NCBI GenBank assembly: GCA_001443395.1
Contig: LDXK01000001.1
Location: forward strand, 223,278-249,311
DNA: 26,034 bases
Direction: 5' to 3'
Source: a candidate division WWE3 bacterium CSP1-7
Lineage (GTDB): Bacteria > Patescibacteriota > WWE3 > 9FT-COMBO-53-11
Below the pieces are notes generated by a model. That model did no database searches and had not been told where the DNA came from. It saw nothing but the letters and a program-made list of their open reading frames with translations. Of this stretch, positions 11,339 through 26,034 are shown one piece after another. Position numbers and translations under genes: made by a program. Numbering within the stretch: the first letter of the stretch is position 1; every line of letters begins with the position of its first letter.

Positions 11339-13225
11339 TTAGACGGTGGGAACGAGAGGAGCGGGCGGAACGGCCGGGGCGGCGGGAGGGACCTCGGTTG
11401 GTAGCCCTTTCTCTCTTGCCTCCTGTTCCAGCTTTTCTTTAATCGCCAGAATTTCCTTCGGCGAGGAAGTTGCCAGCGGGTGTTCATCGGGCGAGGCAAC
11501 CACCTGCATTGCAACATGGTTCGGGCCGGCAAAGAAGAGCCCCTCTCCGACGTTCGCCGCCAAGAGAATCCGCTTCTCTCCCTCCGACAGATAGAAGACT
11601 TTGGTGATTTCGTCGATCGCGGCCGGGTGCTGTTTGAGGAGGATCTGGAGCGAGGAGTTGGTCACGATCGCCTTGCCGTAATCGGAGCGGAGGAAATCCG
11701 CCACATCCTGGGTGATGGTGGTTAGGCCCAGGTAGTATTTGCGGGCCCGCTTGGCGATGGAGTACATGAAGACCGCCGAGTCGGGGTGCTGCATCAGGTA
11801 CCAGGCCTCGTCGACGACCAGAACCCGCTTCTTGATCTCGCGGCGGATCCGGCTCCAGATGAAGTCGAGAATGATGTACATCGCCACCGGCCGGACCTTC
11901 TCTTCCAGGTCCCGGGTGGAGAAGACGGTGAAGGTGTTGCGGATGTCCACGGTGGAGGGCTGGTCAAAAATCCCCTTCAGTGAACCGGTAACGTACTGCT
12001 CGAGCCGGTCGGCCAACGGCTGGCCGCCGGGACTTCTTTTCAACACCTCGTAGATATCCGTCATCACCGGGGCGGGATTCTGGTGGGTCGTTGGGTCTTG
12101 GGTTATTCCTTTGCCGGCGTAGGTTTCCAGGAGGGCTCGATCGATCAGGGCATCCTCGGAGGGAGCGAGTTGGCCCATGATGACTTTGAAGAGAGTGTGC
12201 AGAGAGAGAACCTTCAGCGCCAGCTCATTCTCCCCTTCTTCATAGGTTCCCGACATATCAAAAGGATTGATTTTGGACGGCGAGGACGGCGAGAAGGTGA
12301 TAAAGTCGCCGCCGATGCTCCGGCAGAGCTGTTCATACTCTTTTTCCGGGTCGATCACCATCACTTCGGTGCCGAACATCAGCGAACGGATCGCCTCCAG
12401 TTTGACCATGTAGGATTTGCCGGCGCCGGACTTAGCGAAGACAACGGTGTTGGCATTCTCCAGCGAGAAGCGGTCGAAGATGATCAGCGAACCGTTGTGC
12501 TCATTGATGCCGTAGAGAATTCCTTCGTTGGCGGTCAGTTCCGAAGAGGTGAGCGGGAAGGTGGTCGCGATCGAAGTGGTGTCCATATTCCGCATAATTT
12601 TCAGCTTGTCCAAGCAGGTGGGAATGGTGGATTGGAAGGCCTCTTCCATCCGGAGGGTGGCGTGCTTGGAGAGGAGCAGAAGGGAGCCGAGAGTTGATTC
12701 CACTTTCTTGGTGACCGCGTCCAGCTCCTCGATCGATTCAGCGCTGATAGTGATGTAGAAGGAGAATTGGAAGAAGCGTTCGGTTCCTTTCACCAGTTGT
12801 TCCTGGAGGGAGCGGGCGTCCTCGAGGGCGGCCTCCACCGTGGGATCAGCGACCCGTCCTCCCTTCTCGTTCTCCTTGACGGTGGCTTCCATTTCGGCGA
12901 TCTTTCGACGAAGGTCGTCGAGAACTCCCCGCGATTCGACCGGGTAGTAGAACATCGACAGGGTGAGGGTGTGGTTGAAGTTGATCAACGGCGAGAGCCA
13001 GTTGGCGCCGACGAAGCGGGGGTATCCGGAGACAAAGATCGTCCGGACAAAGGTCTCTCCGATCTTGAGGTGGTTGAAGTCAACATCGATCGAAGGCGGG
13101 GCGATGATGTCCTGGACCGAGACCGCTCCGGCCGCGATGGTCTGAGCGAGCTGCGGCAGGGTCGCGGGTGCCCCGGCGGGAACGGGAACGGGAGGCGGGG
13201 CGTAGACTCCGGGCTGTTCTGTCAT
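11339..13225 (-). CDS. virB4: VirB4-like type IV secretion ATPase
   Basis: FDRFSLENAN, AKSGAGKS (Walker A), VIDPEKEY, INPFD, VVDEAW (Walker B), KRARKY, TQDVADF. Confidence 0.9.
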   Translation of the reverse strand: MTEQPGVYAPPPVPVPAGAPATLPQLAQTIAAGAVSVQDIIAPPSIDVDFNHLKIGETFVRTIFVSGYPRFVGANWLSPLINFNHTLTLSMFYYPVESRGVLDDLRRKIAEMEATVKENEKGGRVADPTVEAALEDARSLQEQLVKGTERFFQFSFYITISAESIEELDAVTKKVESTLGSLLLLSKHATLRMEEAFQSTIPTCLDKLKIMRNMDTTSIATTFPLTSSELTANEGILYGINEHNGSLIIFDRFSLENANTVVFAKSGAGKSYMVKLEAIRSLMFGTEVMVIDPEKEYEQLCRSIGGDFITFSPSSPSKINPFDMSGTYEEGENELALKVLSLHTLFKVIMGQLAPSEDALIDRALLETYAGKGITQDPTTHQNPAPVMTDIYEVLKRSPGGQPLADRLEQYVTGSLKGIFDQPSTVDIRNTFTVFSTRDLEEKVRPVAMYIILDFIWSRIRREIKKRVLVVDEAWYLMQHPDSAVFMYSIAKRARKYYLGLTTITQDVADFLRSDYGKAIVTNSSLQILLKQHPAAIDEITKVFYLSEGEKRILLAANVGEGLFFAGPNHVAMQVVASPDEHPLATSSPKEILAIKEKLEQEAREKGLPTEVPPAAPAVPPAPLVPTV

Positions 13226-13937: not shown

Positions 13938-15362
13938 CTATTTTGACCTTATCTCCAACTCTTCCATTTCCTTTCCTGTTAACTCAACCTTCATTGTAGC
14001 AAAGGAAAACGGCGTTTTCGGGACTCGGACCGCGTATTTCCCATTGGGGAGCGGGCTGGTGACGAACTTACCTAGTTCACTGGTCTTGATGGCGCGGACG
14101 ACGTTGCCCTTTTCGTCCTCGACCACCACCAGAGTTTGGTCGAGGATTCCGCCCTGGGGATCGAAAACTACACCGGCGATGATGTTCTCCCCGGCTTTGG
14201 GTGGAGCGATCGGCGGCGCCGCCGAGGGTTTGGGCAGAGGGGGAGCTGTAGGAAAAGGAATAGGAGTAGGAATAGGTGTGGGTTTTTCTTCGGGCGGCGA
14301 CGGAACTACCACCGGTGGTGGAGTCGGTTCCGGTATCGGTTCGGGCTCAGGCAGCGGCGCGGGAGGAGGCGGGGGCGGAGCTACTGGAGCGGGTGGAATT
14401 TCCTCCACTTCGGGAACGGGCGGAAGCGGCAACGGAGGGGGCGGGGCGATCGGTTCCACCGTCACAGTTGCCAGGGCCGGTGCCGTCGGAAGTTCCGGGG
14501 CGATGATCTGTTCTCGGGCGGGAGCGTAAACCATCTCGCCGGCGATAGCCAGCGGCGTTAAGCGGCGGCCGACCCGGGTGTTGCGGCGGGCGGCGAAATA
14601 ACTGGCGACCCGCCCCCGCTGGACTTTGTAGACCGGTTCGGCGAAATTGACCTGAGAAGCCAGAGAAGCCCGTTCGATGATTTTGGTCGCCTCCACAAAT
14701 CTCAGCCGCGGGGCTGGTGGAGGAGGAGGCGGTCCCTCGACTTCGCTCGGGGCGACTGGCGAAACAGTCGGAGCGGCCATCACCTCTTCCAGGGTTAGCG
14801 CCGCGGTCGGCGGAGCGACCGGAACGGGAGCCGGGACAAACGCCGGGGCGGCCGGGGTCACCATGGTTTGGGCGAGGCTGCGGATGGATCCCAGGTACTG
14901 TTCTTCCGCCAGATCCAAAGGATTGAGCTCTTTTTGTTCGCGGATTCCACCGAGGTAAGTTTCCAGCCGGCGGCGGGATTCTTCTGGACTGATTTCCGGC
15001 CCGCTCACTCTAGTGAATTTGGGCATCTCCAAAATCAAAAATTCGGCCGGCGCGGTGCTCTTAACCCACATCCGGCGGGTGGGAGAGTAAACTGCCCGGA
15101 AGAAAGCAGTGATCCATTGATCCAGCGATTGGTCTTGAAAGGGTATCAGAGCGAAGGCAACACCGAAGAGAACAAGAGATATGGAGATAAGGAGACGGAA
15201 CGGGAGGAAAAGACCGGAGGAGAAAATGGCAAAGGCGAAGAACCCGCAGATCGCCAGGATGGCGAACTGGCGGATAGTGAGATCACCGATCAGCTTGAAC
15301 TGGACCCCAAAAACCTGCTGGGGAACGGCGTGCTGTTTGGTTGTGAGCGGTTCTTCAGGCAT
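13938..15362 (-). CDS. prgI: PrgI-family (VirB3-like) membrane protein with Pro-rich linker and C-terminal carboxypeptidase-regulatory-like beta domain
   Basis: QHAVPQ...QFKLIGDLTIRQF plus two TM helices; C-terminal IAGVVFD.QG......V.V.D.KG...KTSELGKF...LPNGKY.V. Confidence 0.8.
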   Translation of the reverse strand: MPEEPLTTKQHAVPQQVFGVQFKLIGDLTIRQFAILAICGFFAFAIFSSGLFLPFRLLISISLVLFGVAFALIPFQDQSLDQWITAFFRAVYSPTRRMWVKSTAPAEFLILEMPKFTRVSGPEISPEESRRRLETYLGGIREQKELNPLDLAEEQYLGSIRSLAQTMVTPAAPAFVPAPVPVAPPTAALTLEEVMAAPTVSPVAPSEVEGPPPPPPAPRLRFVEATKIIERASLASQVNFAEPVYKVQRGRVASYFAARRNTRVGRRLTPLAIAGEMVYAPAREQIIAPELPTAPALATVTVEPIAPPPPLPLPPVPEVEEIPPAPVAPPPPPPAPLPEPEPIPEPTPPPVVVPSPPEEKPTPIPTPIPFPTAPPLPKPSAAPPIAPPKAGENIIAGVVFDPQGGILDQTLVVVEDEKGNVVRAIKTSELGKFVTSPLPNGKYAVRVPKTPFSFATMKVELTGKEMEELEIRSK

Positions 15363-15459
15363 GGGCTAGGGACTAGGGATTAGGGTTCAGGGTTTAGTAT
15401 AGACAGATCCAAGCTTAAACCTATACCCTACACCCTACACCCTACACCCTATACCCTAG
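15363..15459. repeat. Opposed heptamer arrays: five GGG tracts then five CCC tracts
   Basis: GGG at 15363, 15369, 15376, 15383, 15390; CCC at 15426, 15433, 15440, 15447, 15454 (TACACCC/TATACCC units). Confidence 0.9.
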
Positions 15460-15499
15460 ATTAGATTATCAAATTTCGGGATTAATCAGGAAATTAGAG

Positions 15500-15569
15500 T
15501 TGATTTTCTCTTAGTTCTATGTTATCCTATAGCTATTAACAACTAAATCTCCCCTAAGAGGGAAGGAGG
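15500..15569 (+). promoter_or_regulatory. Sigma70-type promoter plus RBS (module copy A)
   Basis: TTGATT-17 bp-(TGt)TATCCT, leader ATAGCTATTAACAACTAAAT, then AGGGAAGGAGG. Confidence 0.7.
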
Positions 15570-15570
15570 C

Positions 15571-16089
15571 ATGATGTCGGATCAGTTGTTCTTCAGCGCC
15601 ATCTTGGCAATCGTTGCTCTGATGGTCGTAGTTCTGGCCGTACTTTTGGGGTTCCTGATTGGTTCCCGGAACACGGTCCGTTCTGAGCGCTCGAGCAAAG
15701 TTCGACATGCCAAGAAGTCCCCTCCCCGCAAGCGCAAGTCCGCGCTCAAGCGTTTCTTCCTCTTCCTCAAGAAGCATTGGCCGAAGCGGAAGAAGAAACA
15801 AGAGGCTCCAGCTCCTGCACCTACTCCTCAGGCGGTCACCGCCGAAAAGAACCAGGACGGGAAGGAGAAGAAAAAGAAGAGTTCTCTGGGGGTAGCCGCG
15901 GCGATCATCGGGGTGATGTTCTCCTTGAATGCGTTTTTCGTTTTCTCGGGAGCTACCATCCTGGTTGTGATCGTTTCGATTGTTTCACAATCTCCCGACG
16001 TTCTTAAAACGGCGACGGGATACGGTTTGGTAGCGGTCTCCTGCGGAGTTTCGTTGGTGTTATTTGCGGTGTATCTGATCAAGAAGTGA
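15571..16089 (+). CDS. Hypothetical membrane protein with Lys/Arg-rich loop (start may be ATG 15574)
   Basis: N-terminal TM helix, highly basic segment, C-terminal hydrophobic helices; has its own promoter, SD and terminator. Confidence 0.75.
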   Translation: MMSDQLFFSAILAIVALMVVVLAVLLGFLIGSRNTVRSERSSKVRHAKKSPPRKRKSALKRFFLFLKKHWPKRKKKQEAPAPAPTPQAVTAEKNQDGKEKKKKSSLGVAAAIIGVMFSLNAFFVFSGATILVVIVSIVSQSPDVLKTATGYGLVAVSCGVSLVLFAVYLIKK

Positions 16090-16097
16090 CGAGTTCA

Positions 16098-16130
16098 GCC
16101 CCGGGTATAATCTACTCGGGGTTTTTTATT
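16098..16130 (+). terminator. Rho-independent terminator
   Basis: GCCCCGGGTA-TAATC-TACTCGGGGT followed by TTTTTATT. Confidence 0.75.
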
Positions 16131-17355
16131 TTTTCCCTCTCGGTTTGTTTAAACCCAGACCTTCCTCGAGGAGACCGGGGGCTTTATAGGCCGCAACGAG
16201 CATCGATAGTGTCAGGATCGGTCCCAAAAGCGAGGTACTGAAAAGTATTGTTTCTCCGACCACTTCCTTAAAGTTTCCTCCACTTAGGAAGGTAGTGGCG
16301 GGAAAAACGGTTTGAGCAGCGAAGAACAGAGCCAAGATGAAGAAAAATAGAATCAGCGGAAATACCAGCGTTTTGGCGATAAGCTTTTTTCCTAGATCAG
16401 TGATGGTACCCTCCTGCCCGGGAAGGGATCCGAACAGAATAACGAGCGGCGAAAAGATTGTGTTCAAGAGAATAAAAACGTAAGCGGAGAGCAGCCTAAT
16501 TGTTGTTAGGACGAAAAGAACTATTCCTCCCAGTATTAAGATGGTCATTAGGATCAATTGAACTAGGCCCGACGCACCCAAATTCACAACCCTCCCGATA
16601 ATTTGCCCAGCAAGTAGGGTCGGTAACCCGCCGACAAGTTCTGCGGCCCCTCCCGAAACCTCGATGGCCGAGGTAATATTTTGGATAACCGTTTGCACCG
16701 CAATGCTGGATACGAGATAGCTGGCAAAAACGGCGAAGATATCGAAAATTAGTGCGATAATCGGGAGAGAAAACGTGATTAGAACCAGCCCCGCGAGAAT
16801 GCGCGGTAGAGCGTAGGTAAACGTCACCACGGTTCTGGTTGGTAGCTGTCTCTGGAGAATAATCATGAATCCGATTGCGATCATCACAATTACGAAAAGA
16901 CCGTAGGCCACGTTCCTTGTACTTTTCCAGAATGTTTCGATTGGGCTCAGTATTTCCGTTCCGATCCCTCCCTCCTGCGCATTAGCTCTCGAATTAAGAA
17001 TGTTGTTGGAGAGCGTGTTTTTGATTATGTTTGCAAAATGATTACCGGTCGGCGGTATTTTGTAGGCGAGAGAGCCGATCTCTCCCACGGCTGAAACCAT
17101 CCCCTTATCCCATTCTCCCCGAGCCATCTGGCTTACATCGTTCGCGGTTAGTTTGTCGGCGTCTTTACCTACGGCGGATCGGAATAGAAAATTAATCCCC
17201 GCAGCGCCAGCCGCCTCAACTGTGCAGTTGATATCCGCTACACACTTGAGGTCGCCCCAAACATCGATGAGGGAGGCCGCTTGCACTGGGGTGGGTTTAA
17301 CAGCGAGCAAAACAAATACCAACAGTGGTAGAACTAATAACTTTAATTTACCCAT
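16126..17355 (-). CDS. VirB6/TrbL-like polytopic membrane protein
   Basis: Signal peptide, then W...RNVAY.LFVIV....GFMI, LPRIL..LVLITFS..I, I....IFSPL......LPG; several TM helices; T4SS context. Confidence 0.6.
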   Translation of the reverse strand: MGKLKLLVLPLLVFVLLAVKPTPVQAASLIDVWGDLKCVADINCTVEAAGAAGINFLFRSAVGKDADKLTANDVSQMARGEWDKGMVSAVGEIGSLAYKIPPTGNHFANIIKNTLSNNILNSRANAQEGGIGTEILSPIETFWKSTRNVAYGLFVIVMIAIGFMIILQRQLPTRTVVTFTYALPRILAGLVLITFSLPIIALIFDIFAVFASYLVSSIAVQTVIQNITSAIEVSGGAAELVGGLPTLLAGQIIGRVVNLGASGLVQLILMTILILGGIVLFVLTTIRLLSAYVFILLNTIFSPLVILFGSLPGQEGTITDLGKKLIAKTLVFPLILFFFILALFFAAQTVFPATTFLSGGNFKEVVGETILFSTSLLGPILTLSMLVAAYKAPGLLEEGLGLNKPRGKK

Positions 17356-17363
17356 TCGCTCTC

Positions 17364-17408
17364 ATTTTAGGGAAACAGAGACTGATAGTCAATTTAAGAT
17401 GCTAAGAT
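17364..17408. promoter_or_regulatory. Back-to-back promoters for divergent, near-leaderless genes
   Basis: Minus strand: TTGACT (17392-17387)-17 bp-TAAAAT (17369-17364), 8 nt before ATG. Plus strand: TGcTAAGAT (17400-17408), 7 nt before ATG. Confidence 0.6.
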
Positions 17409-17415
17409 TTAACCA

Positions 17416-19635
17416 ATGGCTGTTTCTGGAAACATCTTTAGTTTTTTCCTCCCGAGCCAGCGCCGCCGCCGCGCTCTACCCACTCTTCCCGCGCCCCCCC
17501 AGGAGGCCGCTCTTGTTAAGGGTTTGGAGGAGGCTTACGCCGCCGTTGACGCGCTCAATCTTCCGAACGAGGTTGGGGAAAATTTTAAGAAGGACCTCAT
17601 ATCCTCCCTAGACATTGCGACACCGCCTACTTCTTACCAAGGGCTATACCCGGGAAATATTGCCCGGCTTTCGTTCAATCTCTCCAAGATTTTTCAGGAT
17701 CCGGTCGCTGGCACCGTTGGAGCTTTGAGTAAATACGTTGGAGAATACGGAAGCGACATCACGAGGTACATCGACCCAAGGTACTACAACGATAGAGTTC
17801 TTGGTCCGGTTCTAAAGCAGTTTAAAGATCGGGATACCGGTAATAATTTACTTCCCTCCTCGACCAGTTACCGTTTAGAGAACTGGGCTTCGGCCGCGGG
17901 AGCGACCCGTACTGCTCGGTTGGGAGCACAGGAGGGTATCTTGGACGACCCGGGGTTGATTGAGATTTGGGCGGGTGAACTCGCAAGCGCTAACCCAGGT
18001 TTGGTCATCAACGGAGTTACGATTGCCGATGTAATTACCGAGTCAGGCACTTCCCGCAGAATTCTTGATTCATTGCGTTCGCAGAGTTTTCAGGCGGCGC
18101 GGATTGGGGATTGGAATCTTGCTGATCAACTTGGCAACCGGATCAAGAATGAGTTGGGTGGTTTTAAAGAACGGCTTGAGCTTCGCGGGGTTTCGCCTTC
18201 TGACGTAACCAGGGAATTCGAGTTACTTGTCAAATCTAACCCCGGCATCTCCACCGATGCCACGCGACTCTACCGAACGCTTAAGGGTCAGCAGGTTTAC
18301 TACGGAGTATTTGATTTTCTCAAGGCGTGGAAGAAGGGGGGAATCTCGGAAGTTGCTCGGGAATATGTTTGGAAAGCAGCAACAAAAGCCATCTTTAAGG
18401 AAGGCACCGCGGGTTATTATTTGTACCCGCCTAACTTAATCAAAGAGGGGGTTAAGAGAGTTTTTGGCGGACAAACTGGGCGGCTAGCAAAGCTTGTTAG
18501 ATCCCAGGTGGCAAATGTCAGGAAGTTCCTCATCCAGAAGATTGGTCCCGTTCTCGGCGGTCTGCTTAAGAAGGTTTTCGCTGTTATGGGTGGTCTTTCA
18601 ATCTCGGTCACTGGGCCAGTTGGGCCGATTGTCGCGGCGATTGTGAACTTCATCATCGGCGACATTATTTTAAAAGCGCTAGGAGGGACTCTTAAGATAC
18701 TGGCCTACACCATTGGTGGTCTTGTCGCTTTCTCCATTGCTCTTGGGATAGGGTTGGTAGTTTTGCTCTCGATCATTCTCGCCAACATCCCCTACCCCTG
18801 GGAGCAGGGGGGCAGCGCGTCTCTGCAGCGGTTTGTGCAGATCGAGGTGAAGGCGTGCGACACCGCTGCCGGCTGTTCCTATCAAAATCCCCTGCGGGTC
18901 TCTAACGGCCAGCATTCTATCGGCTGGCGAGTCGTGATCAAAAATATCTCCCCCGTGACTCTCACCGGCTCCGAATTCACTTTCTCCCAAACGCAGTGCA
19001 CGGGGTCGGGAGCTTTCGATTTTGCCCTTGCTCCTGGGGCGGAACGAGTGGCGGTTTGTTCCAGCTCGTTTACCGAAACGGACGAGGTGGTGAGCAACGT
19101 GGTTTCTTTTGCCTCCTCCGGACCCGCCACGAACGAAGAATCCGTCGGGATTGTTATTTTTGGCAATCCTCCGGTCGTACTTCCCACCGGCTGGCCGGTC
19201 GGAAAGGGTTGCATCACCCAAGGACCGGATGGTTCCTACTCCCACGGCGGTACCGAGGCGATCGATATCGGTTCCGTCAGCACCGGAACGGCAGTGCGGG
19301 CGACTTTCAATGGGGTGGTGCAAACGGCGTGTTGGGCATCCGGGGACGGATGTGATCCCGACGGTTACGGCAACTACGTGCGCTTGTCATCTCTGAATGG
19401 CAACTTCAGTGCCGTCTTTGGCCACTTGGCCACCACCAGTGTGAAGAGCGGTGACCAGGTCACCGTCGGCCAGCAAGTAGGGACCGTGGATAACACCGGC
19501 AACTCTTCCGGCACCCACCTGCACTACGAGTTCCGCAGTTTGCCCATGGCTGAGCCTTATATCCCGCGTGATACTGGCAGCCACGGGAGTATTCGCGACT
19601 GTTCGGATGCCAGTGAGTGCGGTTTGTGTTTTTAA
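17416..19635 (+). CDS. Large membrane-anchored M23 metallopeptidase (copy a)
   Basis: Long N-terminal region, hydrophobic segment, Ig-like beta domain, then GWP, SHGGTEAIDI, YGNYV, FGHL, VDNTGNSSGTHLHYE. Confidence 0.88.
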   Translation: MAVSGNIFSFFLPSQRRRRALPTLPAPPQEAALVKGLEEAYAAVDALNLPNEVGENFKKDLISSLDIATPPTSYQGLYPGNIARLSFNLSKIFQDPVAGTVGALSKYVGEYGSDITRYIDPRYYNDRVLGPVLKQFKDRDTGNNLLPSSTSYRLENWASAAGATRTARLGAQEGILDDPGLIEIWAGELASANPGLVINGVTIADVITESGTSRRILDSLRSQSFQAARIGDWNLADQLGNRIKNELGGFKERLELRGVSPSDVTREFELLVKSNPGISTDATRLYRTLKGQQVYYGVFDFLKAWKKGGISEVAREYVWKAATKAIFKEGTAGYYLYPPNLIKEGVKRVFGGQTGRLAKLVRSQVANVRKFLIQKIGPVLGGLLKKVFAVMGGLSISVTGPVGPIVAAIVNFIIGDIILKALGGTLKILAYTIGGLVAFSIALGIGLVVLLSIILANIPYPWEQGGSASLQRFVQIEVKACDTAAGCSYQNPLRVSNGQHSIGWRVVIKNISPVTLTGSEFTFSQTQCTGSGAFDFALAPGAERVAVCSSSFTETDEVVSNVVSFASSGPATNEESVGIVIFGNPPVVLPTGWPVGKGCITQGPDGSYSHGGTEAIDIGSVSTGTAVRATFNGVVQTACWASGDGCDPDGYGNYVRLSSLNGNFSAVFGHLATTSVKSGDQVTVGQQVGTVDNTGNSSGTHLHYEFRSLPMAEPYIPRDTGSHGSIRDCSDASECGLCF

Positions 19636-19637
19636 AG

Positions 19638-20666
19638 ATGAGCTTGTCGGACGTCCAAGAATTTATTGTGCGTAATCGCCGTAAACTTTTGATAGCCCTG
19701 TTATTGGTGGTTATCATTTCTTTGGCGGCGGGATTTATCTGGCGAGAAGTGATAACCGAGGTTCCCGAAGAGGAAAAAATTCCGTCCTTCACTCTCTCTC
19801 AGGTGCCGGGGAGAGTATTGGGTGTGATTGATTTTTCCAAACTCTCCGCGCCGGATTTTCCACCGTCCTCTACGGTATATCGGATTGAGAAAATGAGCCT
19901 AACTTTTACTCAAGCGGATGCTGCGGGGTGGGCGAAGAGTTTTGGATCTCTCTCTCCGTCGGGAGAGGTCGCAACGCCTCTGGGCGTGATCTACGTTTTT
20001 GCCAAAAAAGGGGAGGAGCTGACCGTTACCAGCAACCCCCGCGCGCTGCACTACACCCGCGAGGGCGGGGGTGGTACGGAGACGCTGCCGGGCAGCGCCA
20101 CTGTTATCGGGATGGCCAAGGAGTTTTTGGCGGCAAAAAAACTTCCTGATACCGGCTCGTTCTCCCCAACCGTTAGGTATCTGAGTGCGATCGGTGAGCG
20201 CACCGCCGAAACAACGGCCGCGGAAGCGAGATACGCAGAGGTTAATTTTTCCTGGTCGGTAAACGGACTCAACATTCTGGGAGAGAGCTCTACCGATTCC
20301 GCCATTCGCGTGATTTTTGATAGGGCGGGACGGGTGGTTTACCTGAGTTATCAGTTCCTTGATTACTCCTTCGCCGCCGATAAGAATTTTCCTCTCCTGA
20401 GCCTCGAGCAGGCCAAAGATGCCCTAGCGGCGGAACCGCAGATAGTTTCGATCCGCCCGATGGGAGATGTCGAAGAATGGACGCTCTCCGAATCCACCAA
20501 CCTCAGCGAGTTCACCCCCGAAAGCGTGCGGCTGGTGTACGTGAGGTTGGCAGACAGCGCTCTTCTCCATCCGGTTTACTTGTTTGAGGGCAGCGGTAGT
20601 ACCGGCGGAATTGGTGTCCGAGCGGCCGCCTATGTTTTGGCTGTATCCGATCAGTACACAAAGTAA
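19638..20666 (+). CDS. Single-TM extracytoplasmic protein, M23 partner a
   Basis: Start reassigned to ATG 19638 (MSLSDVQEFIVRNRRKLL), 2 bp after the M23 stop, by alignment with its paralog; C-terminal V.LVY...LHPVYLFEG. Confidence 0.8.
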   Translation: MSLSDVQEFIVRNRRKLLIALLLVVIISLAAGFIWREVITEVPEEEKIPSFTLSQVPGRVLGVIDFSKLSAPDFPPSSTVYRIEKMSLTFTQADAAGWAKSFGSLSPSGEVATPLGVIYVFAKKGEELTVTSNPRALHYTREGGGGTETLPGSATVIGMAKEFLAAKKLPDTGSFSPTVRYLSAIGERTAETTAAEARYAEVNFSWSVNGLNILGESSTDSAIRVIFDRAGRVVYLSYQFLDYSFAADKNFPLLSLEQAKDALAAEPQIVSIRPMGDVEEWTLSESTNLSEFTPESVRLVYVRLADSALLHPVYLFEGSGSTGGIGVRAAAYVLAVSDQYTK

Positions 20667-20672
20667 AGTTGG

Positions 20673-21725
20673 TTAAGGTTTAATGGCGGAAAGTGCGACG
20701 TTTGCGTAAACTTCGATATCGGAAATCGCTCCCTTTCCTTCAAAGAGATAAATCGGGATCAGGAATTCCGTTCCCGGAACCTGATAGTAGACGAGACTAA
20801 TCGTTTGAGGAGTGAACGAAGTCAGATCATCCGTTTCGATGAAACGCTCTTTCGCCGCCTCGGTCGGCAGCATTGAGATTACCAATCCTTTTCCTTCCAG
20901 ATCTGCCGTGGCTTCCGCGAAATTTAGCAGGGGAACAATTTTAAACTGGGTGAAAGTTTGGTCGGTCTCTTTGTAACTCAAAGAGACGACCGTTCCGGCT
21001 CGATTAAAGACCACTCTTACTAAGGGCTCGGAGATAGTTTTACCCAAAATACTCTGACCGGCGACCGCCTGAACAAACGATAGCTCCAGCGCGTTTGCCC
21101 TCTTAGGGTTCTGGGTCTGGACGATCGCCTCCACATCGTAAATCAGGTAGCGAACACCAAAGAAGACGATGTCAGTGGTGGGGAGGCCTTTTCCTTCCAG
21201 ATACTCTTTGGATTTCTGGATCGCGGTGGCCTGGTCGTAGATTTTTCCGGAAACGTTTTTGGTCTTGGCAACTATATTTTTGAATGAGTAGCGAATCTCT
21301 CGGGGGTAGCTGAACACCGCCATATTTACCTCGTCCTGTGCGAAAACGAACATCCTTTCTTCTCCAGGGAGGGAAACGCGGTTGGTGATTTCCCGGTCGA
21401 AAGCGAACCGCTCGGCGATGTCTTGGGCCTGTGATTCCGTGGTGCTCTCTTTTTGTTCACTAACCTTGTAAACCACCGTTTCTTGGGGAAGGCTGGTCTC
21501 CGCTAGCTTGCCAAGATTTATCTGTCCAGAGATTTTCCAGGTGTCTCCCGCAAAAGAGAAGGTGGGAACCTCTCCTTCCTCTCCGTTGGTCGGATCAGGT
21601 TCCCCATTCTTTTGGGAGGACTGCCAGAACAGAAGTGCTCCGCCCCCAACCAAGAGAATAAGAATGGCGAGGAGAATCTTTTTTCTGTTCCTTTGCAAAA
21701 AACCGCTCAAGTCGTTGAGAGTCAT
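20673..21725 (-). CDS. Single-TM extracytoplasmic protein, M23 partner b
   Basis: Start reassigned to ATG 21725 (MTLNDLSGFLQRNRKKIL), 4 bp after the M23 stop; C-terminal ISLVY...LIPIYLFEG. Confidence 0.8.
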   Translation of the reverse strand: MTLNDLSGFLQRNRKKILLAILILLVGGGALLFWQSSQKNGEPDPTNGEEGEVPTFSFAGDTWKISGQINLGKLAETSLPQETVVYKVSEQKESTTESQAQDIAERFAFDREITNRVSLPGEERMFVFAQDEVNMAVFSYPREIRYSFKNIVAKTKNVSGKIYDQATAIQKSKEYLEGKGLPTTDIVFFGVRYLIYDVEAIVQTQNPKRANALELSFVQAVAGQSILGKTISEPLVRVVFNRAGTVVSLSYKETDQTFTQFKIVPLLNFAEATADLEGKGLVISMLPTEAAKERFIETDDLTSFTPQTISLVYYQVPGTEFLIPIYLFEGKGAISDIEVYANVALSAIKP

Positions 21726-21729
21726 TGGT

Positions 21730-23460
21730 TTACCAGCGAATATTGGGGCAGCTGGGGAAGAGACACCCGCGAATACCGCCGCCCCCGTCATCGGGAATGT
21801 ACGGAACTCTCATCTCCAAGGCTCTTAGGCGGAATTCGTAGTGAAGATGAGTTCCTCCCATTCCGGTATCACCGACCGCTCCGATCACGCTCCCCGGAGA
21901 AACCGGTTGGCCCTTTCCCACGAAAACTGCCGAAAGGTGGCCGTAGCGAATTATGGTGGGGACATCGGGGTCGCCGGATTGGAGATCGATATAGTTTCCG
22001 TATATCGGGTCGGTTCCGGTCGCCAGGATGTTTCCCTCGACGGTTGCCAGAACCGCATCTCCCATGCTCACGCCGGGTCCGGGACCGATGTCGATCGCCT
22101 CTACCACTCTGTGAGTGCAGTTGGCGCAGGAGGCTTTTGGACCCTGGAAGATGAAACCGTGGTAGGTGGGCCAACCTAGGAATTTTCCGCTCATCAGTAC
22201 GTCCGCGCAGTTGGCAGGGTGGGCGGTGAGTCCATAGATTATGCAATCTACAGCTTCTCCAACGTTTCCGAGGGAAGCAATTTTTAGAGTGGAGGTAGCG
22301 CCGACGGCGCTTTTGAACGCCTCCCAAAGACCACTCAATCCTCCCGTCTGGGAAAACGACACCCGCGATTCTTCGCTGTCCTCGGACTTGAAAATTGTCT
22401 CCGGGGGTAAGAGAGCAGCAAAAGCACCACTGGGGCCAGCCATATTTGCCCAAGCCCCCCCGGCTAAGGATACCTTCGACTGAACATCCAAATCTCCCGT
22501 AGCGGTAAGAGTTTCAATGCTAGGTATAAACATTTTTGCGATGCAGCCGATGTCGGTCAGGTCGCATTCTCTTATCTCGGAAATGGGTTCGATCACTTCC
22601 AATGCGCGCCAGATAGCTTTGCGGAACCAGGAAACTCCCTCTTTAGGAACGATGGGGCGGGGGCTGAAATTTTCCGCGGGACAGTTCACATCGGGAAGTT
22701 CCAACGGTTCGTCGGTGGGAAAAGAGAAGGCCTGTGCCAGGAGACCGTACCGGTCGTAGAGCGGAGCAACCTCGCCGAACTTCCCTTCTAGCTGGTAGTT
22801 CTCCTCTCCAACTTGAATTTTTTCTTCTTGGCCTTCGGTACGAACATCCCAGTAAGGTTTGGTTTGGGTGGGGGCGTGGGTTCCATCGATCTCCAATTCT
22901 CCGCGGTCGGGATGGACACTCACTTGAATATTGGTTTGGTTCTCGACCACCCATCCTTGAGCCAACTGTCCTTCGGCTTTTGTCAAGGCGAGGTTGGGGT
23001 CCACTTCCTTCCCGTTCTCGTTTTCTTGCTTGTAGCCGGGCATAAGGAGTTTTGGGATTGAGCCGGTTAACTCTCCCGGTTCAGTGGATTCGGGATCGCC
23101 CGATAGCGTCATTGTTCGGGCCCGGATAAGCTCGACGGGCATGTTAGTTGGGTTACTTAGAGTAAGTTGCCCCTCGTCATTTGTATATGGGATTTTGAAA
23201 GAGACACCGAAGCATTGGGCCCGAGCTTTCCCACCTTTTGGGAGCATTGGGATGCATCCGCTAATACTCAACCCGTAGTTTTCACCGACCGCGTTAGCGT
23301 TAGCTGCCTCGGAGGAAAGAGCGGGAGAACCCTTCCTAATAAACGGGCAGGTTGGGATTTCTGCTGCCGTCACCGGCCCCACGCTGAGGATTAATCCACT
23401 GATCAGGAAAAGCAACGCTAAGATGGCAGGGGTCGTAGGAAAACGCATTCTATCCGGCAT
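21730..23460 (-). CDS. Secreted M23 metallopeptidase (copy b)
   Basis: Signal peptide (..VTAA), unknown Cys-containing N-terminal region, then GWP, THRVVEAIDI, YGNYI, YGHL, VGDTGMGGTHLHYE. Confidence 0.88.
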   Translation of the reverse strand: MPDRMRFPTTPAILALLFLISGLILSVGPVTAAEIPTCPFIRKGSPALSSEAANANAVGENYGLSISGCIPMLPKGGKARAQCFGVSFKIPYTNDEGQLTLSNPTNMPVELIRARTMTLSGDPESTEPGELTGSIPKLLMPGYKQENENGKEVDPNLALTKAEGQLAQGWVVENQTNIQVSVHPDRGELEIDGTHAPTQTKPYWDVRTEGQEEKIQVGEENYQLEGKFGEVAPLYDRYGLLAQAFSFPTDEPLELPDVNCPAENFSPRPIVPKEGVSWFRKAIWRALEVIEPISEIRECDLTDIGCIAKMFIPSIETLTATGDLDVQSKVSLAGGAWANMAGPSGAFAALLPPETIFKSEDSEESRVSFSQTGGLSGLWEAFKSAVGATSTLKIASLGNVGEAVDCIIYGLTAHPANCADVLMSGKFLGWPTYHGFIFQGPKASCANCTHRVVEAIDIGPGPGVSMGDAVLATVEGNILATGTDPIYGNYIDLQSGDPDVPTIIRYGHLSAVFVGKGQPVSPGSVIGAVGDTGMGGTHLHYEFRLRALEMRVPYIPDDGGGGIRGCLFPSCPNIRW

Positions 23461-23500
23461 TGTTCAGATAAATCTTAACAGAATTGAACGGCTTAAATTG

Positions 23501-23565
23501 TTGACCCCGTTTCTATCCCATGGTAAACTATGGGTTAGTAAAAACTCAATCGGGAGAGGGAGGGA
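23501..23565 (+). promoter_or_regulatory. Sigma70-type promoter plus RBS (module copy B)
   Basis: TTGACC-17 bp-(TGg)TAAACT, leader ATGGGTTAGTAAAAACTCAAT, then GAGGGAGGG. Confidence 0.7.
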
Positions 23566-23571
23566 CATTCC

Positions 23572-24300
23572 GTGTCCAAAGGTTTGATCACCATTGACGG
23601 CAAAGAGGTTGGGAAACCAGCCTTAATCAAGAAGGAAAATTCCATTACAATCGATGGCAAAGAGATGGGGTCGGGAGGATTGGTCGATTTGGTTTTCATC
23701 ATCGACACGACCATATCGATGAGTGGCAAGATCCACGGGCTCTTGAAGACCTGTTCCGAATTCGTCGATGATTTTGCTCGTCTCGGTCTTGATCAACAGA
23801 TTGCCGTTGTCTCCTATGGTTACCTTGCTGTACCGGGTGACAGGATTGATGCGTCTCCTTTCACCAGTAAGATCGAAGTGGTAAAGAGGTATCTCTCTGA
23901 CATTCACCGAAACTATGGGGGAGGGAGATTTGGTGAGTCGTCACCGGAAGCAATCGAGAAGGCGATAACGTTGGGATTCCGACCCGGGTCGGTCCAGGTC
24001 TTTATTCTCATCACCGACGAGCACGCCCGTAACGATTGGTCGCGCATCGAGGCCCTTGGTGCCCGACTCATCAGGAGTGAAATCCTGGTCTTCGTAATCT
24101 CAGATCCGCAGGATTGTTACAAGCGAATGGCCAAGCAATCCGGGGGAAGCTGGTACCAGATTGCGGCGGATACCAACTTCAGCTCGATTCTGGATCTCTT
24201 CCGTGCCGTCTCCAAGAAGGTTTCGCAGGTTGTCCTGGATGTCCATCAGCTCGGCCACGGAAGCGTCTCTCGTTACCGTCAGTTGAGTTCCGGAAAGTAG
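23572..24300 (+). CDS. von Willebrand factor type A domain protein
   Basis: VDLVFIIDTTISM (MIDAS-like), IAVVSY, GGG..GES, VFILITD, Y..MA..SGG. Confidence 0.85.
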   Translation: MSKGLITIDGKEVGKPALIKKENSITIDGKEMGSGGLVDLVFIIDTTISMSGKIHGLLKTCSEFVDDFARLGLDQQIAVVSYGYLAVPGDRIDASPFTSKIEVVKRYLSDIHRNYGGGRFGESSPEAIEKAITLGFRPGSVQVFILITDEHARNDWSRIEALGARLIRSEILVFVISDPQDCYKRMAKQSGGSWYQIAADTNFSSILDLFRAVSKKVSQVVLDVHQLGHGSVSRYRQLSSGK

Positions 24301-24306
24301 TCCAAC

Positions 24307-24339
24307 GCCCGCATCTGTTTTGCTGCGGGCTTTTTATTT
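24307..24339 (+). terminator. Rho-independent terminator
   Basis: GCCCGCA-N10-TGCGGGC followed by TTTTTATTT. Confidence 0.75.
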
Positions 24340-24401
24340 GCGTCAATTCGGTGTTCGTGCTATCCTATAGTTTAGTTAAAACCTAATAGAAGGGAAGGAG
24401 G
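24338..24401 (+). promoter_or_regulatory. Sigma70-type promoter plus RBS (module copy C)
   Basis: TTGCGT-17 bp-(TGc)TATCCT, leader ATAGTTTAGTTAAAACCTAAT, then AGGGAAGGAGG. Confidence 0.7.
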
Positions 24402-24406
24402 GCGAA

Positions 24407-25705
24407 ATGAAGGATTACTACCGCGTTTTGGGCGTTCATCCTAAAGCAGAGCCGGAAGTGATCAAGGCCGCCTACAATGGTTTGGCCAAGAAGTACCATC
24501 CGGATCTTAATCCGTCGCCCTCGGCGACGGAGAGGATGAAGGAGATCAATGAGGCTCACGAGGTTCTAAGCGACCCTGTTCGCAGAGCTGGCTATGAGCG
24601 CGAGTACGTGTCGCATTTTGGGAACGAGTTCTCTACCGATCCTCCGGTTCTGAAGGTTCGGCCAAAGACTTTGAACTTTGGTGAACTCGCAGCCGGGTCG
24701 AAGGTTGAGAAGCGTTTTGTGGTTGAGAACCACGGAGGCCCCCTTAAGGGACGACTGAACATCGATGGATCGCAGTGCCGTGGTTGGGCAACAGTAAGTG
24801 CCCGACCCAACTCCGGCGATTCCGACTTTCCCCTGGAGGTTACGGTTGAGGTTGATACCGCTAACCTTCCGCCGGGCTGGGTACTTGGGAAGATCCACCA
24901 GGCACGAATCCTTCTCCAATACCTGGACGAGGAGATCGCAGTCGTGCTTCGTCTGACGGTTTTACCTTCTACGTCTAGGCGTAGCTCTACGGCCCAGCCA
25001 TCATCTGGTCGGGGCCGGAGCCCAACTCCCTCCCTCTCTCCAAATTCTGGGATAGACCGGGATGGAGTAAAGGTTGTTGTCTTCCTTGGCTTAGTCTCAG
25101 TTTTGTCTGTTGTCGCGCTGCTTCTAAGCTTATCTTGGCTGTCGCGGCCCGGAGTGCTTCCTTTAGGGGCTGGTCAGGAAACTGCGGGACAACCAGAAAT
25201 CGATCGGGTCGCTGTTGAATTTGCGCAGGTTTTGGAGAAGCTTGACTTGCGCATGCGTCTTGTTTCCTACGATGAGGAGCGCGATTTCCTCGTCTACGAC
25301 GTCTACATCAGGAACAATGACGACAATGAGCACCCTGTCGCTCTTTATTTCGAGGAGTGCCCGGAGGATCAAGCACCCATTGGGGCACTTGATATGGAGT
25401 GGTGTGGTGGAAAACCAGATTCGGCCACAATGCTTATCGAAGCTCACTCCACCACGAATTTTCCCGCTGGATGTTCACTCCAGGGCACGATCCTCCCAGG
25501 AGTTTCGATAACTGATCTATGCGGGCTTCGAGTAAGGATTGACGAAATAGACGGCGTCATTAATCCCAGTCCGTTTTGGAATTGGCAGATCGGAATCTTC
25601 GATGAGGACGGACAAATCTACCCTTGGTTCGTGAACGAGAACTGGGAAAAGATAGGTCCGGCCGATCGTGATTTCGATGATCCCTCGAAAGAGATTGAAG
25701 GATAG
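24407..25705 (+). CDS. J-domain protein with Ig/BACON-like domain, TM helix and C-terminal domain
   Basis: KDYYRVLGV..IKAAY..LAKKYHPD..INEA.EVLSDP.RR; L.V.P..LNFG.L......F.V.N.GG..L; Ser/Pro linker; TM VVVFLGLVSVLSVVALLLSL. Confidence 0.85.
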   Translation: MKDYYRVLGVHPKAEPEVIKAAYNGLAKKYHPDLNPSPSATERMKEINEAHEVLSDPVRRAGYEREYVSHFGNEFSTDPPVLKVRPKTLNFGELAAGSKVEKRFVVENHGGPLKGRLNIDGSQCRGWATVSARPNSGDSDFPLEVTVEVDTANLPPGWVLGKIHQARILLQYLDEEIAVVLRLTVLPSTSRRSSTAQPSSGRGRSPTPSLSPNSGIDRDGVKVVVFLGLVSVLSVVALLLSLSWLSRPGVLPLGAGQETAGQPEIDRVAVEFAQVLEKLDLRMRLVSYDEERDFLVYDVYIRNNDDNEHPVALYFEECPEDQAPIGALDMEWCGGKPDSATMLIEAHSTTNFPAGCSLQGTILPGVSITDLCGLRVRIDEIDGVINPSPFWNWQIGIFDEDGQIYPWFVNENWEKIGPADRDFDDPSKEIEG

Positions 25706-25713
25706 GTGACTTT

Positions 25714-25751
25714 ACCCAGCTTGCGGTTTCCGTGAGCTGGGTTTTCTTTTT
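25714..25751 (+). terminator. Rho-independent terminator
   Basis: ACCCAGCTTGCGG-TTT-CCGTGAGCTGGGT followed by TTTCTTTTT. Confidence 0.75.
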
Positions 25752-25753
25752 AG

Positions 25754-26034
25754 CTAGGGTTTAAAACCAATTGTGGACAGGACGGTGCTTACGATTACCG
25801 AAGAGAGTAGAACGATAAAGAGACCAAGTACAGCGTAAGTGAGAGTGGATTTGGCAGTGGTTAGTGCTTTTTCATCTCCGCCGGATATCATATATTGCAG
25901 ACCCCCGACAACAAACATAACCAGGGAGACCGCTCCTACGATTATCAAAAGATAATTGATTAACTTCCCGACGATGCAGAATATTCCAGTGATTTCTTCG
26001 GTGGAACAGGTTTCACCGAATGTCACTCCAAGAT
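25754..26034 (-). CDS. TrbC/VirB2-like T4SS pilin, 5'-truncated by the window edge
   Basis: INYLL.IVG.VS..M.VVGG.QYM.SGGD......AK.TLTYAV.GL two-helix pilin pattern; the frame stays open to the window end. Confidence 0.8.
   Translation of the reverse strand, partial: LGVTFGETCSTEEITGIFCIVGKLINYLLIIVGAVSLVMFVVGGLQYMISGGDEKALTTAKSTLTYAVLGLFIVLLSSVIVSTVLSTIGFKP

Follow-up and report, generated by a model that had tools for sequence, protein, structure and literature searches.

Three genes of a candidate division WWE3 bacterium (CSP1-7), which lie antisense within a type IV secretion gene cluster and share a promoter and leader layout, appear on balance to be ordinary single-gene transcription units, each under a lineage-specific promoter class of the sigma-70-type extended -10 kind. 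The three modules are not a local peculiarity of the analysed stretch of 26,034 nucleotides (the window), as the class also serves about ten membrane-protein and lipoprotein genes genome-wide. The units are no new kind of mobile element; they are ordinary genes with promoters and terminators. Their features, in window coordinates, are as follows.

15366-15458, no strand: inverted heptamer array between the start of the PrgI-like gene and module 1, CTAGGGA-type about 3-4 times and CCCTAYA-type 5.6 times, z -3.2; a 7-nt copy-number variant of the array occurs in contigs of two runs
15472-15495, no strand: inverted repeat AATTTC-N12-GAAATT just 5' of the module 1 -35, also at the orthologous place in G001 (same genus)
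15500-15570, plus strand: module 1, with -35 TTGATT (15500-15505), 17-nt spacer, extended -10 TGTTATCCT (15520-15528), ATAG (15529-15532), A-rich leader and Shine-Dalgarno (SD) site AGGGAAGGAGG (15559-15569) before ATG 15571
15571-16089, plus strand: 172-aa membrane protein with N-terminal membrane segment, Lys/Arg-rich linker and C-terminal membrane segments; its start is probably the second ATG, 15574; contigs of three runs have an extra T behind 15571
16097-16133, no strand: terminator 1, an 11-pair stem (16097-16123) and T-tract, fold z -4.3, common to the convergent 409-aa membrane-protein gene
23501-23571, plus strand: module 2, with -35 TTGACC (23501-23506), 17-nt spacer, TGGTAAACT (23521-23529), ATGG (23530-23533), A-rich leader and GGGAGAGGGAGGGA SD region before GTG 23572
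23572-24300, plus strand: 242-aa von Willebrand A (vWA) domain protein (Pfam VWA, E 1.4e-8), without membrane segment
24307-24339, plus strand: terminator of the vWA gene, a hairpin (24307-24330) and a T-tract reaching into the module 3 -35, -14.8 kcal/mol, z -2.1
24338-24406, plus strand: module 3, with -35 TTGCGT (24338-24343), 17-nt spacer, TGCTATCCT (24358-24366), ATAG (24367-24370), A-rich leader and SD AGGGAAGGAGG (24391-24401) before ATG 24407
24407-25705, plus strand: 432-aa protein with J domain (Pfam DnaJ, E 2e-21), membrane segment and a C-terminal domain beyond the membrane segment
25714-25752, no strand: terminator after the J-domain gene, a 13-pair stem (25714-25742) and T-tract, z -4.8, common to the convergent pilin gene

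By inspection of the sequence, a TTGnnn -35 element stands at 17-nt spacing in all three modules, and TG lies one base 5' of the TAnnnT hexamer in each. The first-pass annotation had described a shared TTG-17 nt-TGnTAnnCT, a strong SD and a 3' GC hairpin with T-tract, all of which can be read directly in the three genes; the purine-rich SD that it gave as identical in two copies is the 11-base AGGGAAGGAGG of modules 1 and 3. The 13-base core TGNTANNCTATRG has three matches in the window, all in modules 1 to 3, versus none in 100 dinucleotide shuffles. The kinship proposed for the leaders holds only in part, as ATRG and A-richness are common to them, but HMMs built from leaders alone retrieve nothing other than their own seeds. 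When the canonical promoter positions are excluded, pairwise ungapped identity of the three modules is 34, 32 and 50%, compared with a mean of 23% and a maximum of 34% among five unrelated extended -10 promoters of the genome; the window promoters are mutually 42-57% identical. The leaders are unstructured (fold z -0.17 for module 1, and -1.4 and +0.17 for the others). The reported inverted repeats around the -10, CTAT-N8-ATAG and CCCAT-N8-ATGGG, are both present, but are kept at only some orthologous sites.

Each unit is self-contained, as had been proposed, with its own promoter, leader, SD site and terminator, and in all three a GC stem-loop followed directly by a T-tract, the mark of an intrinsic terminator, lies 3' of the stop codon; by their folds the terminators are strong. 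The hairpin at 24307-24330 was missed by the terminator scan because its loop is larger than the limit of the scan. The terminator at 25714 is kept in four loci, and in G009, a genome of another genus, it has changes on both arms that were judged compensatory by eye in the alignment. The opposite orientation that had been described holds with respect to the VirB4-like, PrgI-like, 409-aa membrane-protein, 372-aa, M23b and pilin genes. Two further plus-strand genes, an M23 peptidase (17416-19635) and a 349-aa ORF, have no module. The window order is dnaA, rnpA, yidC, dnaN, then VirB4-like ATPase, PrgI-like protein, M23 hydrolases and type IV secretion pilins, which resembles the placing of type IV secretion loci next to dnaA/dnaN that the consulted part of PMC12102498 reports for Paceibacteria and Microgenomatia. 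The main text of that article does not contain the words 'promoter', 'vWA', 'von Willebrand' or 'DnaJ', and the antisense accessory units and the promoter class are not described there.

The 572-kb genome contains eight matches to the core, each 5' of the start codon of a gene, and a reversed-pattern control has none. TANNCTATRG occurs at 20 genome sites, and the eight with TG are exactly the eight that stand before genes. Extended -10 promoter-like sites 5' of genes number 22, and the element is found in eight of them (seven exact, and one ATAA variant at contig C1 131012). ATAG follows TGNTANNCT six times, as against 0.27 expected, and C occupies hexamer position 5 in 8 of 9 sites of TGNTANNNT plus ATRG. 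One looser site (C1 20767) is without TG and has no ORF behind it, and another (C2 12108) has CG in place of TG. An HMM from ten sites, scanned against the 572 kb, gives those ten and one more, the next best being no better than E 2.5. With an HMM from six non-window, non-paralogous sites, modules 1 (E 0.015) and 3 (E 0.69) rank right behind the seeds, and module 2 is found by the cross-validation HMM only with its paralogue among the seeds. Because HMM specificity, the 8/22 subset and the ATAG coupling mark a distinct class, the regulon-like half of the earlier proposal stands: this is a small promoter class and not the generic promoter of the genome, and it reaches lipoprotein and membrane-protein genes elsewhere. 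The lipoprotein units elsewhere in the genome also end in terminators.

A hydrophobic segment is present in 8 of 9 downstream proteins of the genome itself, versus 197 of 710 crude genes (28% background), and in 21 of 25 downstream proteins of relatives; these counts are not independent, since the nine own genes include four lipoprotein paralogues and the modules of relatives are often orthologues. The envelope bias is not universal, because the vWA protein is without a membrane segment.

Among ten genomes of the family the core has 35 matches, compared with 5 for the reversed control. The 31 genomes of other families in the class have 43 versus 68 in the control (summed), that is, no enrichment. 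Counted from the TG of the core, 25 of 26 sites of relatives lie 38-120 nt 5' of an SD and ORF. At 34 core-only sites the unselected positions 17 nt upstream are T, T and G in 25, 29 and 26 cases. Conservation of the core itself is circular, because the sites were collected with the core pattern; the independent evidence is the TTG, the placement relative to genes and the gene bias only. The module 1 region (15462-15543) is 81% identical in G001, where the gene behind it is undetectable at the DNA level, and module 2 is kept up to 23540 in a paralogous locus on contig C3 and in G001.

The class has TTG, a spacer of 17 nt and TGnTAnnCT, with ATRG as an invariant discriminator, and continues into a leader of about 30-45 nt that is rich in A, poor in G and unstructured and has a near-consensus SD site. 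Each unit is closed by an intrinsic terminator, two of the three being shared with convergent neighbours; because the units are antisense inside the type IV secretion gene cluster, transcription must halt before these neighbours. The class marks membrane-protein and lipoprotein genes in the genome and family, most likely for common, and probably high, expression, and the units are probably a co-expressed envelope gene set. Judged from sequence, transcription would start about 7 nt after the -10, and strength and co-regulation are likewise predictions, as is the assignment to a sigma factor. The genome encodes one sigma factor of RpoD size (385-aa frame) and an ECF-like one (195 aa) limited to regions 2 and 4. 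A sigma factor that has region 3 would fit the invariant TG. ECF-sigma promoters have a -35 with AAC, a -10 with CGT-type motifs and no TG extension. An ECF-sigma regulon was rejected, as the promoters show TTG and TGnTAnnCT, although the genome encodes the ECF-like factor.

Extended -10 (TGn) promoters of sigma-70/sigma-A have been described in E. coli and Gram-positive bacteria. The class resembles them in its TTG -35, 17-nt spacer, TGn-TAnnnT and distance of 30-100 nt to the SD and start codon. It differs in the invariant C at hexamer position 5 coupled to the discriminator ATRG, and in being envelope-biased and confined to about ten genes per genome in one family of small genomes. TAnnTTTG in Bacteroidetes is a similar lineage-specific -10 extension, whereas the class here marks a subset of promoters and not all. 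A 5' stem-loop with a strong SD is known to stabilise abundant envelope-protein mRNAs (ompA, Bacillus 5' stabilisers). Twelve leaders of the class, picked by eye, have a 4-6 bp G:C hairpin abutting the SD, in which one pair is changed from C:G to G:C in 5 of 12 and none is broken; stabilisation is a candidate function. Unlike those systems, the window units show such a hairpin in module 1 only, where folding is no stronger than in shuffled sequence.

The first-pass annotation had offered insertable cassettes as the other possibility. Most integron cassettes have no promoter; they are transcribed from a shared Pc and end in attC beside an intI integrase with attI. The window units resemble them in being short, in holding one gene each, with unrelated functions and a common orientation, and in having a 3' inverted repeat. 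They differ in each carrying a promoter of its own and in having simple GC hairpins with T-tracts as 3' repeats; no attC was found at the 3' ends and no intI nearby. No recombinase, attC-like site or flanking repeats were found near the units, and a recombinase Pfam search of the 80%-complete genome gave one tyrosine recombinase, a PF00589 match on contig C3 at 55.5 kb, and no serine recombinase (PF00239), in agreement with the original remark that neither integrase nor attC-like site was seen. The slot between the PrgI-like and 409-aa genes, which was to be looked for empty in relatives, is filled in both G001 and G009: it carries homologous membrane proteins that evolve fast and stand under the same promoter. 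The 172-aa protein is weakly homologous to the first G001 slot protein (E 2e-4), and G001 unit 1 matches G009 unit 2 at E 1e-19. The vWA gene and the J-domain gene form a conserved pair: in G009 they are syntenic, with the same terminator and promoter between them (vWA orthologue 71% identical). The cassette reading largely fails, because leader similarity is not significant and the genes are syntenic in relatives, the outcome set beforehand as refuting it. With the slots occupied by homologues, the lone tyrosine recombinase on another contig and the 3' repeats being terminators, mobile cassettes were rejected.

Promoter reuse or cassette-like turnover, in which promoter and terminator frames persist and payload genes are replaced or moved by recombination, with the result that unrelated genes share modules, is improbable. 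Window 19036-23540 is 85.6% identical to contig C3 1-4517. The homology breaks off some ten bases inside the module 2 leader and is found again from the terminator onwards (25713-25934, 71.6%). In the intervening part, the window has the vWA gene, its terminator, module 3 and the J-domain gene (about 2.2 kb), whereas C3 and G001 have one zinc-ribbon membrane-protein gene. The PrgI-like/409-aa slot holds one unit in the window and two in G001 and in G009. The vWA/J-domain pair has a patchy distribution, being carried by 4 of the 134 genomes in the class, and its block in G009 lies at a different place in the pilin array. However, payloads are homologous across slots, which agrees better with old paralogy and rapid divergence than with insertion: besides the two matches above, the J-domain protein and the zinc-ribbon membrane proteins that fill the same slot elsewhere have homologous C-terminal domains (hhalign probability 97.7%, E 1.7e-12). 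G009 has the J-domain fusion as well (49% identity), so the fusion is old. In G024, of another family, the pair stands without the module under a different promoter, and in G125, also of another family, the core match TGATAACCTATAG 5' of the vWA gene is downstream of a canonical TTGACT-17-TAGAAT and ambiguous. The concept of promoter reuse has been published: the consulted part of PMC3575422 describes putative mobile promoters, with similar promoters before non-homologous genes in one genome. Module 1 and the lipoprotein promoter of contig C5, which precede non-homologous genes, may be such a case (69% over 52 nt). Compared with the reuse outlined in that part of the article, the low mutual identity of the window modules is concentrated in the 13-base core, and neither recent copying nor a mobile-element context is apparent.

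Control by a dedicated DNA-binding regulator, a repressor or activator switching envelope genes, for example on host contact, is unlikely but deserves more weight. Its operators would be CTAT-N8-ATAG/CCAT-N8-ATGG over the -10, and AATTTC-N12-GAAATT at module 1, a candidate regulator site. ATRG and the hexamer C are invariant beyond sigma-70 needs, the spacer is partly conserved between the non-orthologous module 1 and C5 lipoprotein promoters, and the upstream repeat is retained in G001, but it is not seen at modules 2 and 3, and the sites have no linked regulator gene. The left arm tends to vary with the right, with position -2 being C in 6 of 7 ATGG sites and, among 27 ATAG sites, C in 9 and T in 14; this is based on related sequences, however, and the right arm is invariant while the left is present in only about half of the 34 sites. 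On present evidence, an operator is indistinguishable from a contact of sigma or core polymerase. Generic strong promoters, duplicated from a few ancestral ones without common function, are the least probable explanation. The promoters do fall into two sequence subgroups of low mutual identity, one joining module 1 and the lipoprotein promoters and the other module 2, C3 and C1 131012; many members are paralogues, and similarity of the leaders alone is not significant. Yet core enrichment is limited to one family, and the core is kept across genera in which the flanking intergenic sequence, and even the genes, can no longer be matched at the DNA level. It also precedes non-homologous genes (vWA, J-domain, zinc-ribbon, lipoprotein and small membrane proteins).

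The sigma-70-type class remains our preferred reading. The conserved ATRG and partly conserved spacer exceed the needs of a sigma-70 promoter, which points to an added factor. It is conceivable, if doubtful, that a private grammar (TGnTAnnCT plus ATRG, read by RNA polymerase and an additional factor) switches on the surface-protein set as insulated expression slots, whose frames are selected while the payloads are exchanged or diverge extremely fast. If true, such slots would let a bacterium living on a host cell vary its surface and the accessories of its secretion system.

Patescibacteria are ultra-small, largely uncultured and in many cases host-dependent, and their gene control is little known. 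No described promoter motif for the group was found in the literature searched. The promoter class makes a candidate set of co-regulated surface proteins open to testing, provides a marker of fast-evolving surface genes in metagenome bins, and may offer a ready-made, predicted strong expression signal for genetic tools in this lineage.

The three promoter/leader modules of the window precede plus-strand genes at 15571 (module 1; a 172-aa membrane protein), 23572 (module 2; vWA) and 24407 (module 3; J-domain). Their core, a 13-base extended -10 element running into ATRG (TGNTANNCTATRG), has exactly 3 matches in the window (15520, 23521, 24358), against 0 in 100 shuffles. Modules 1 and 3 have the same Shine-Dalgarno string, AGGGAAGGAGG, and the three terminators, each a hairpin with a T-tract, were verified; promoter, leader, Shine-Dalgarno and terminators were all found where the first-pass annotation had placed them. 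That annotation also described the leaders as related. They do have A-richness in common, being A-rich, G-poor and unstructured, whereas their similarity proved to be the weak part: outside the canonical promoter positions, ungapped identity among the three modules is 32-50%, compared with 23% (maximum 34%) for five unrelated extended -10 promoters, and leader-only HMMs retrieved nothing beyond their own seeds. Since the leaders also fold no better than shuffles, a role for them as an RNA or sequence element was rejected. A known RNA family was likewise rejected, as scanning 15000-26034 against Rfam (E<=1) yielded only two chance matches below threshold, let-7 on the hairpin of a heptamer array beside module 1 and anti-hemB on the first terminator.

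Across the genome (572 kb in 7 contigs, 53% GC, estimated completeness 80%) the core has 8 matches, all upstream of a Shine-Dalgarno and start codon on the strand of the gene, and the reversed-pattern control has 0. Looser searches add a CG variant (contig C2, 12108) and a TGGTAAACT-ATAA variant (C1, 131012). A ten-site nhmmer profile recovers only sites of this class, including both variants, with everything else no better than E 2.5. When the profile was restricted to six sites, leaving out the window sites and their paralogues, modules 1 (E 0.015) and 3 (E 0.69) ranked directly behind the seeds; module 2 was found (E 0.0038) only when its C3 paralogue served as a seed. Upstream of crude gene calls there are 22 promoter-like sites with an extended -10; 8 of them carry the element, one being the ATAA variant, and the remaining sites are different and lack it. 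After TGNTANNCT, ATAG was observed 6 times against 0.27 expected, and position 5 of the hexamer is C in 8 of 9 TGNTANNNT+ATRG sites. Avoidance of a restriction site or palindrome was rejected, the 62 occurrences of CTATAG on both strands (74 expected) being unremarkable. Site C1 20767, with neither TG nor an ORF behind it, was dropped from the class.

The core is enriched within the family, with 35 matches against 5 for the control summed over ten genomes; for 31 class members from other families the sums are 43 and 68. Of 27 matches in nine relatives, 26 were fetched (the other lies at a contig edge), and in 25 of these the TG of the core lies 38-120 nt ahead of a Shine-Dalgarno and ORF. Among 34 core-aligned sites, T, T and G occur in 25, 29 and 26, respectively, exactly 17 nt upstream of the hexamer. 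These positions lay outside the search pattern and thus provide the best independent evidence for promoters of sigma-70 type. Downstream of ATRG follow G (20/34), T (20/34) and about 12 A-rich, G-poor positions.

The genes behind these promoters comprise the three of the window, four paralogous lipoproteins, a 72-aa membrane protein, a zinc-ribbon membrane protein and a 213-aa ORF. Members outside the window sit in ordinary chromosomal contexts, such as glycogen genes or near pilM, and are also closed by terminators. Of the proteins encoded downstream, 8 of 9 in this genome and 21 of 25 in relatives have a hydrophobic segment, compared with 197 of 710 background genes, a contrast inflated by kin and paralogues; the gene calls were made by simple rules for ORFs and Shine-Dalgarno sites (761 genes; coding fraction 85%), so that background figures built on them are approximate.

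Two clusters of paralogous Pro/Thr-rich lipoproteins (contig C2, 4550-8626; contig C5, 5653-10110) were observed, in which each gene has its own class promoter and terminator, and large PA14-domain proteins follow the clusters. These are likely to be abundant surface proteins. Many class leaders, mainly those of lipoprotein genes, carry a G:C hairpin of 4-6 bp immediately before the Shine-Dalgarno (alignment A3), with a flip from C:G to G:C in 5 of 12 sequences picked by eye. Such a hairpin may stabilise the mRNA or keep the ribosome-binding site exposed. Examples among others in alignment A3 are:
contig C2 (locus L001), 4514-4552
contig C5 (locus L002), 5153-7193
locus L015, 16807-16846

The window forms the final 26 kb of contig C1 and contains dnaA, rnpA, yidC, a KH/R3H protein gene and dnaN, followed by a minus-strand type IV secretion (T4SS) cluster:
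11339-13225, minus strand, VirB4/TraG-like ATPase
next in order, minus strand, 236-aa ORF
13938-15362, minus strand, PrgI-like gene
16126-17355, minus strand, 409-aa membrane protein with only a weak CreD match in Pfam
next in order, minus strand, 372-aa ORF
21730-23460, minus strand, M23 peptidase
from 25754, minus strand, T4SS pilin
The 409-aa protein had been called VirB6-like; it is a membrane protein, and the VirB6 label was not confirmed by Pfam, which gave the CreD match alone. A T4SS adjoining dnaA/dnaN is a placement described for Patescibacteria in PMC12102498, and the window matches it; from its size and this context, the genome probably belongs to that group.

Between the start of the PrgI-like gene and module 1 lies an inverted array of 7-nt repeats (15366-15458), CTAGGGA-type on the left and CCCTAYA-type, 5.6 times, on the right; as DNA it can form one long, interrupted hairpin (-18 kcal/mol, z -3.2). 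One unit is absent in contigs of two runs; smaller arrays of the heptamer occur at seven other places on contig C1, and the same-genus genome G001 has a run of N there. The array may serve as an iteron-like site for a regulator, or it may be a variable repeat. In three public runs, contigs have an extra T after 15571, which abolishes the first ATG, so the 172-aa gene probably starts at the second (15574). Both M23 peptidase genes lack a Shine-Dalgarno and have TGnTAAGAT just 9-14 nt before ATG (17395-17418, plus strand; 23460-23485, minus strand), the minus-strand site being kept in contig C3 and G001 (alignment A1). This looks like a second conserved promoter type giving leaderless or near-leaderless transcripts.

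A second, paralogous T4SS sub-locus (contig C3, 1-5768) matches window 19036-26034 and holds a hydrolase, two ORFs, M23, the slot gene and three pilin-domain genes. It starts exactly at the start of C3, and C1 ends within the pilin gene; the two contigs may be joined as a tandem duplication that broke the assembly.

The first-pass annotation had proposed either a regulon or insertable cassettes. In slot 1, between the PrgI-like and 409-aa genes, G001 and G009 (another genus) each have two self-contained units and the window has one. The G001 and G009 promoters are near-identical, including parts of the spacer, and the proteins are related and fast-evolving: G001 unit 1 matches G009 unit 2 at E 1e-19, G001 unit 2 at 5e-9 and the window 172-aa protein at 2e-4. 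Promoter DNA (15462-15543) is 81% identical to G001, equal to the flanking genes, with the payload undetectable. In slot 2, between hydrolase and pilin, window 19036-23540 and C3 1-4517 are 85.6% identical; the homology breaks off some ten bases inside the module 2 leader and picks up again at the terminator. Between these points C3 and G001 have a single zinc-ribbon membrane-protein gene; in the window, the same interval contains vWA, a terminator, module 3 and the J-domain gene. Beyond its membrane segment, the J-domain protein is homologous to the corresponding part of the zinc-ribbon proteins (hhalign 97.7%, E 1.7e-12), and G009 repeats this vWA/J-domain pair, down to the internal terminator-promoter junction. 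Slot 2 thus reflects old paralogy combined with an exchange of the N-terminal domain, and no recent insertion.

The J-domain and double-zinc-ribbon proteins have a common membrane segment and C-terminal domain and differ in their cytoplasmic N-terminal domains, a domain swap within a T4SS-linked membrane-protein family. A wider search for relatives of the J-domain protein's C-terminal part returned the protein itself only. Their genes lie at:
window, 24407-25705
contig C3 (L003), 4555-5541
locus L015, 8668-9609

Four of the 134 class genomes contain the vWA/J-domain pair, and in two other families it is located outside any T4SS locus. This order of genes, vWA then J-domain, constitutes a conserved module of two genes whose surroundings are unrelated, one example being a place between an MFS transporter and trigger factor:
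L041 (G125, contig C1), 1453-3094
L042 (G024, contig C3), 599-2322
Its promoter is different in G024, and G125 has an ambiguous core match, positioned downstream of a canonical promoter. In G009 the pair occupies a different position in the pilin array, so the block has moved at least once.

Cassette insertion is not supported. The only tyrosine recombinase of the genome (80% complete) lies about 50 kb off on another contig, the same assembly has no serine recombinase, no flanking direct repeats were seen at the units, and their 3' repeats are plain terminators. Empty sites were sought in contigs of four DNA runs; joints such as 23485 to 25845 and 15809 to 23521 were not used because the contigs are short and each joint comes from single contigs of one run, where the shorter side spans 22-30 bases at 85% likeness. 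The regulon-like half of the proposal is supported and extended.

The housekeeping sigma factor would read these promoters, which fits the presence of an RpoD-size frame and a sole other sigma that is ECF-like and lacks region 3; an ECF sigma as driver was rejected, as the motif does not fit. The string CTATAGG had suggested a phage-type (T7-like) promoter, but the TTG and TG positions fit sigma-70 instead. PF00940 had no match in the genome and is uninformative, since the control matched in no genome either. The organism therefore uses ordinary promoters too: the 409-aa gene is preceded by a canonical TTGACT-17-TAAAAT site. ATRG does not vary, nor does the hexamer C, and CTAT and ATAG are partly symmetric; each of these patterns could reflect a lineage-specific polymerase contact or a regulator. 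Terminators would be needed by geometry, the units being antisense to the T4SS genes and converging on the 409-aa and pilin genes, with convergent stops 36-48 nt apart. We conclude that the window units would act as insulated monocistronic units. They represent a lineage-specific form of a familiar type of signal, moderately interesting chiefly because they offer a first entry point to gene control in a poorly known group.
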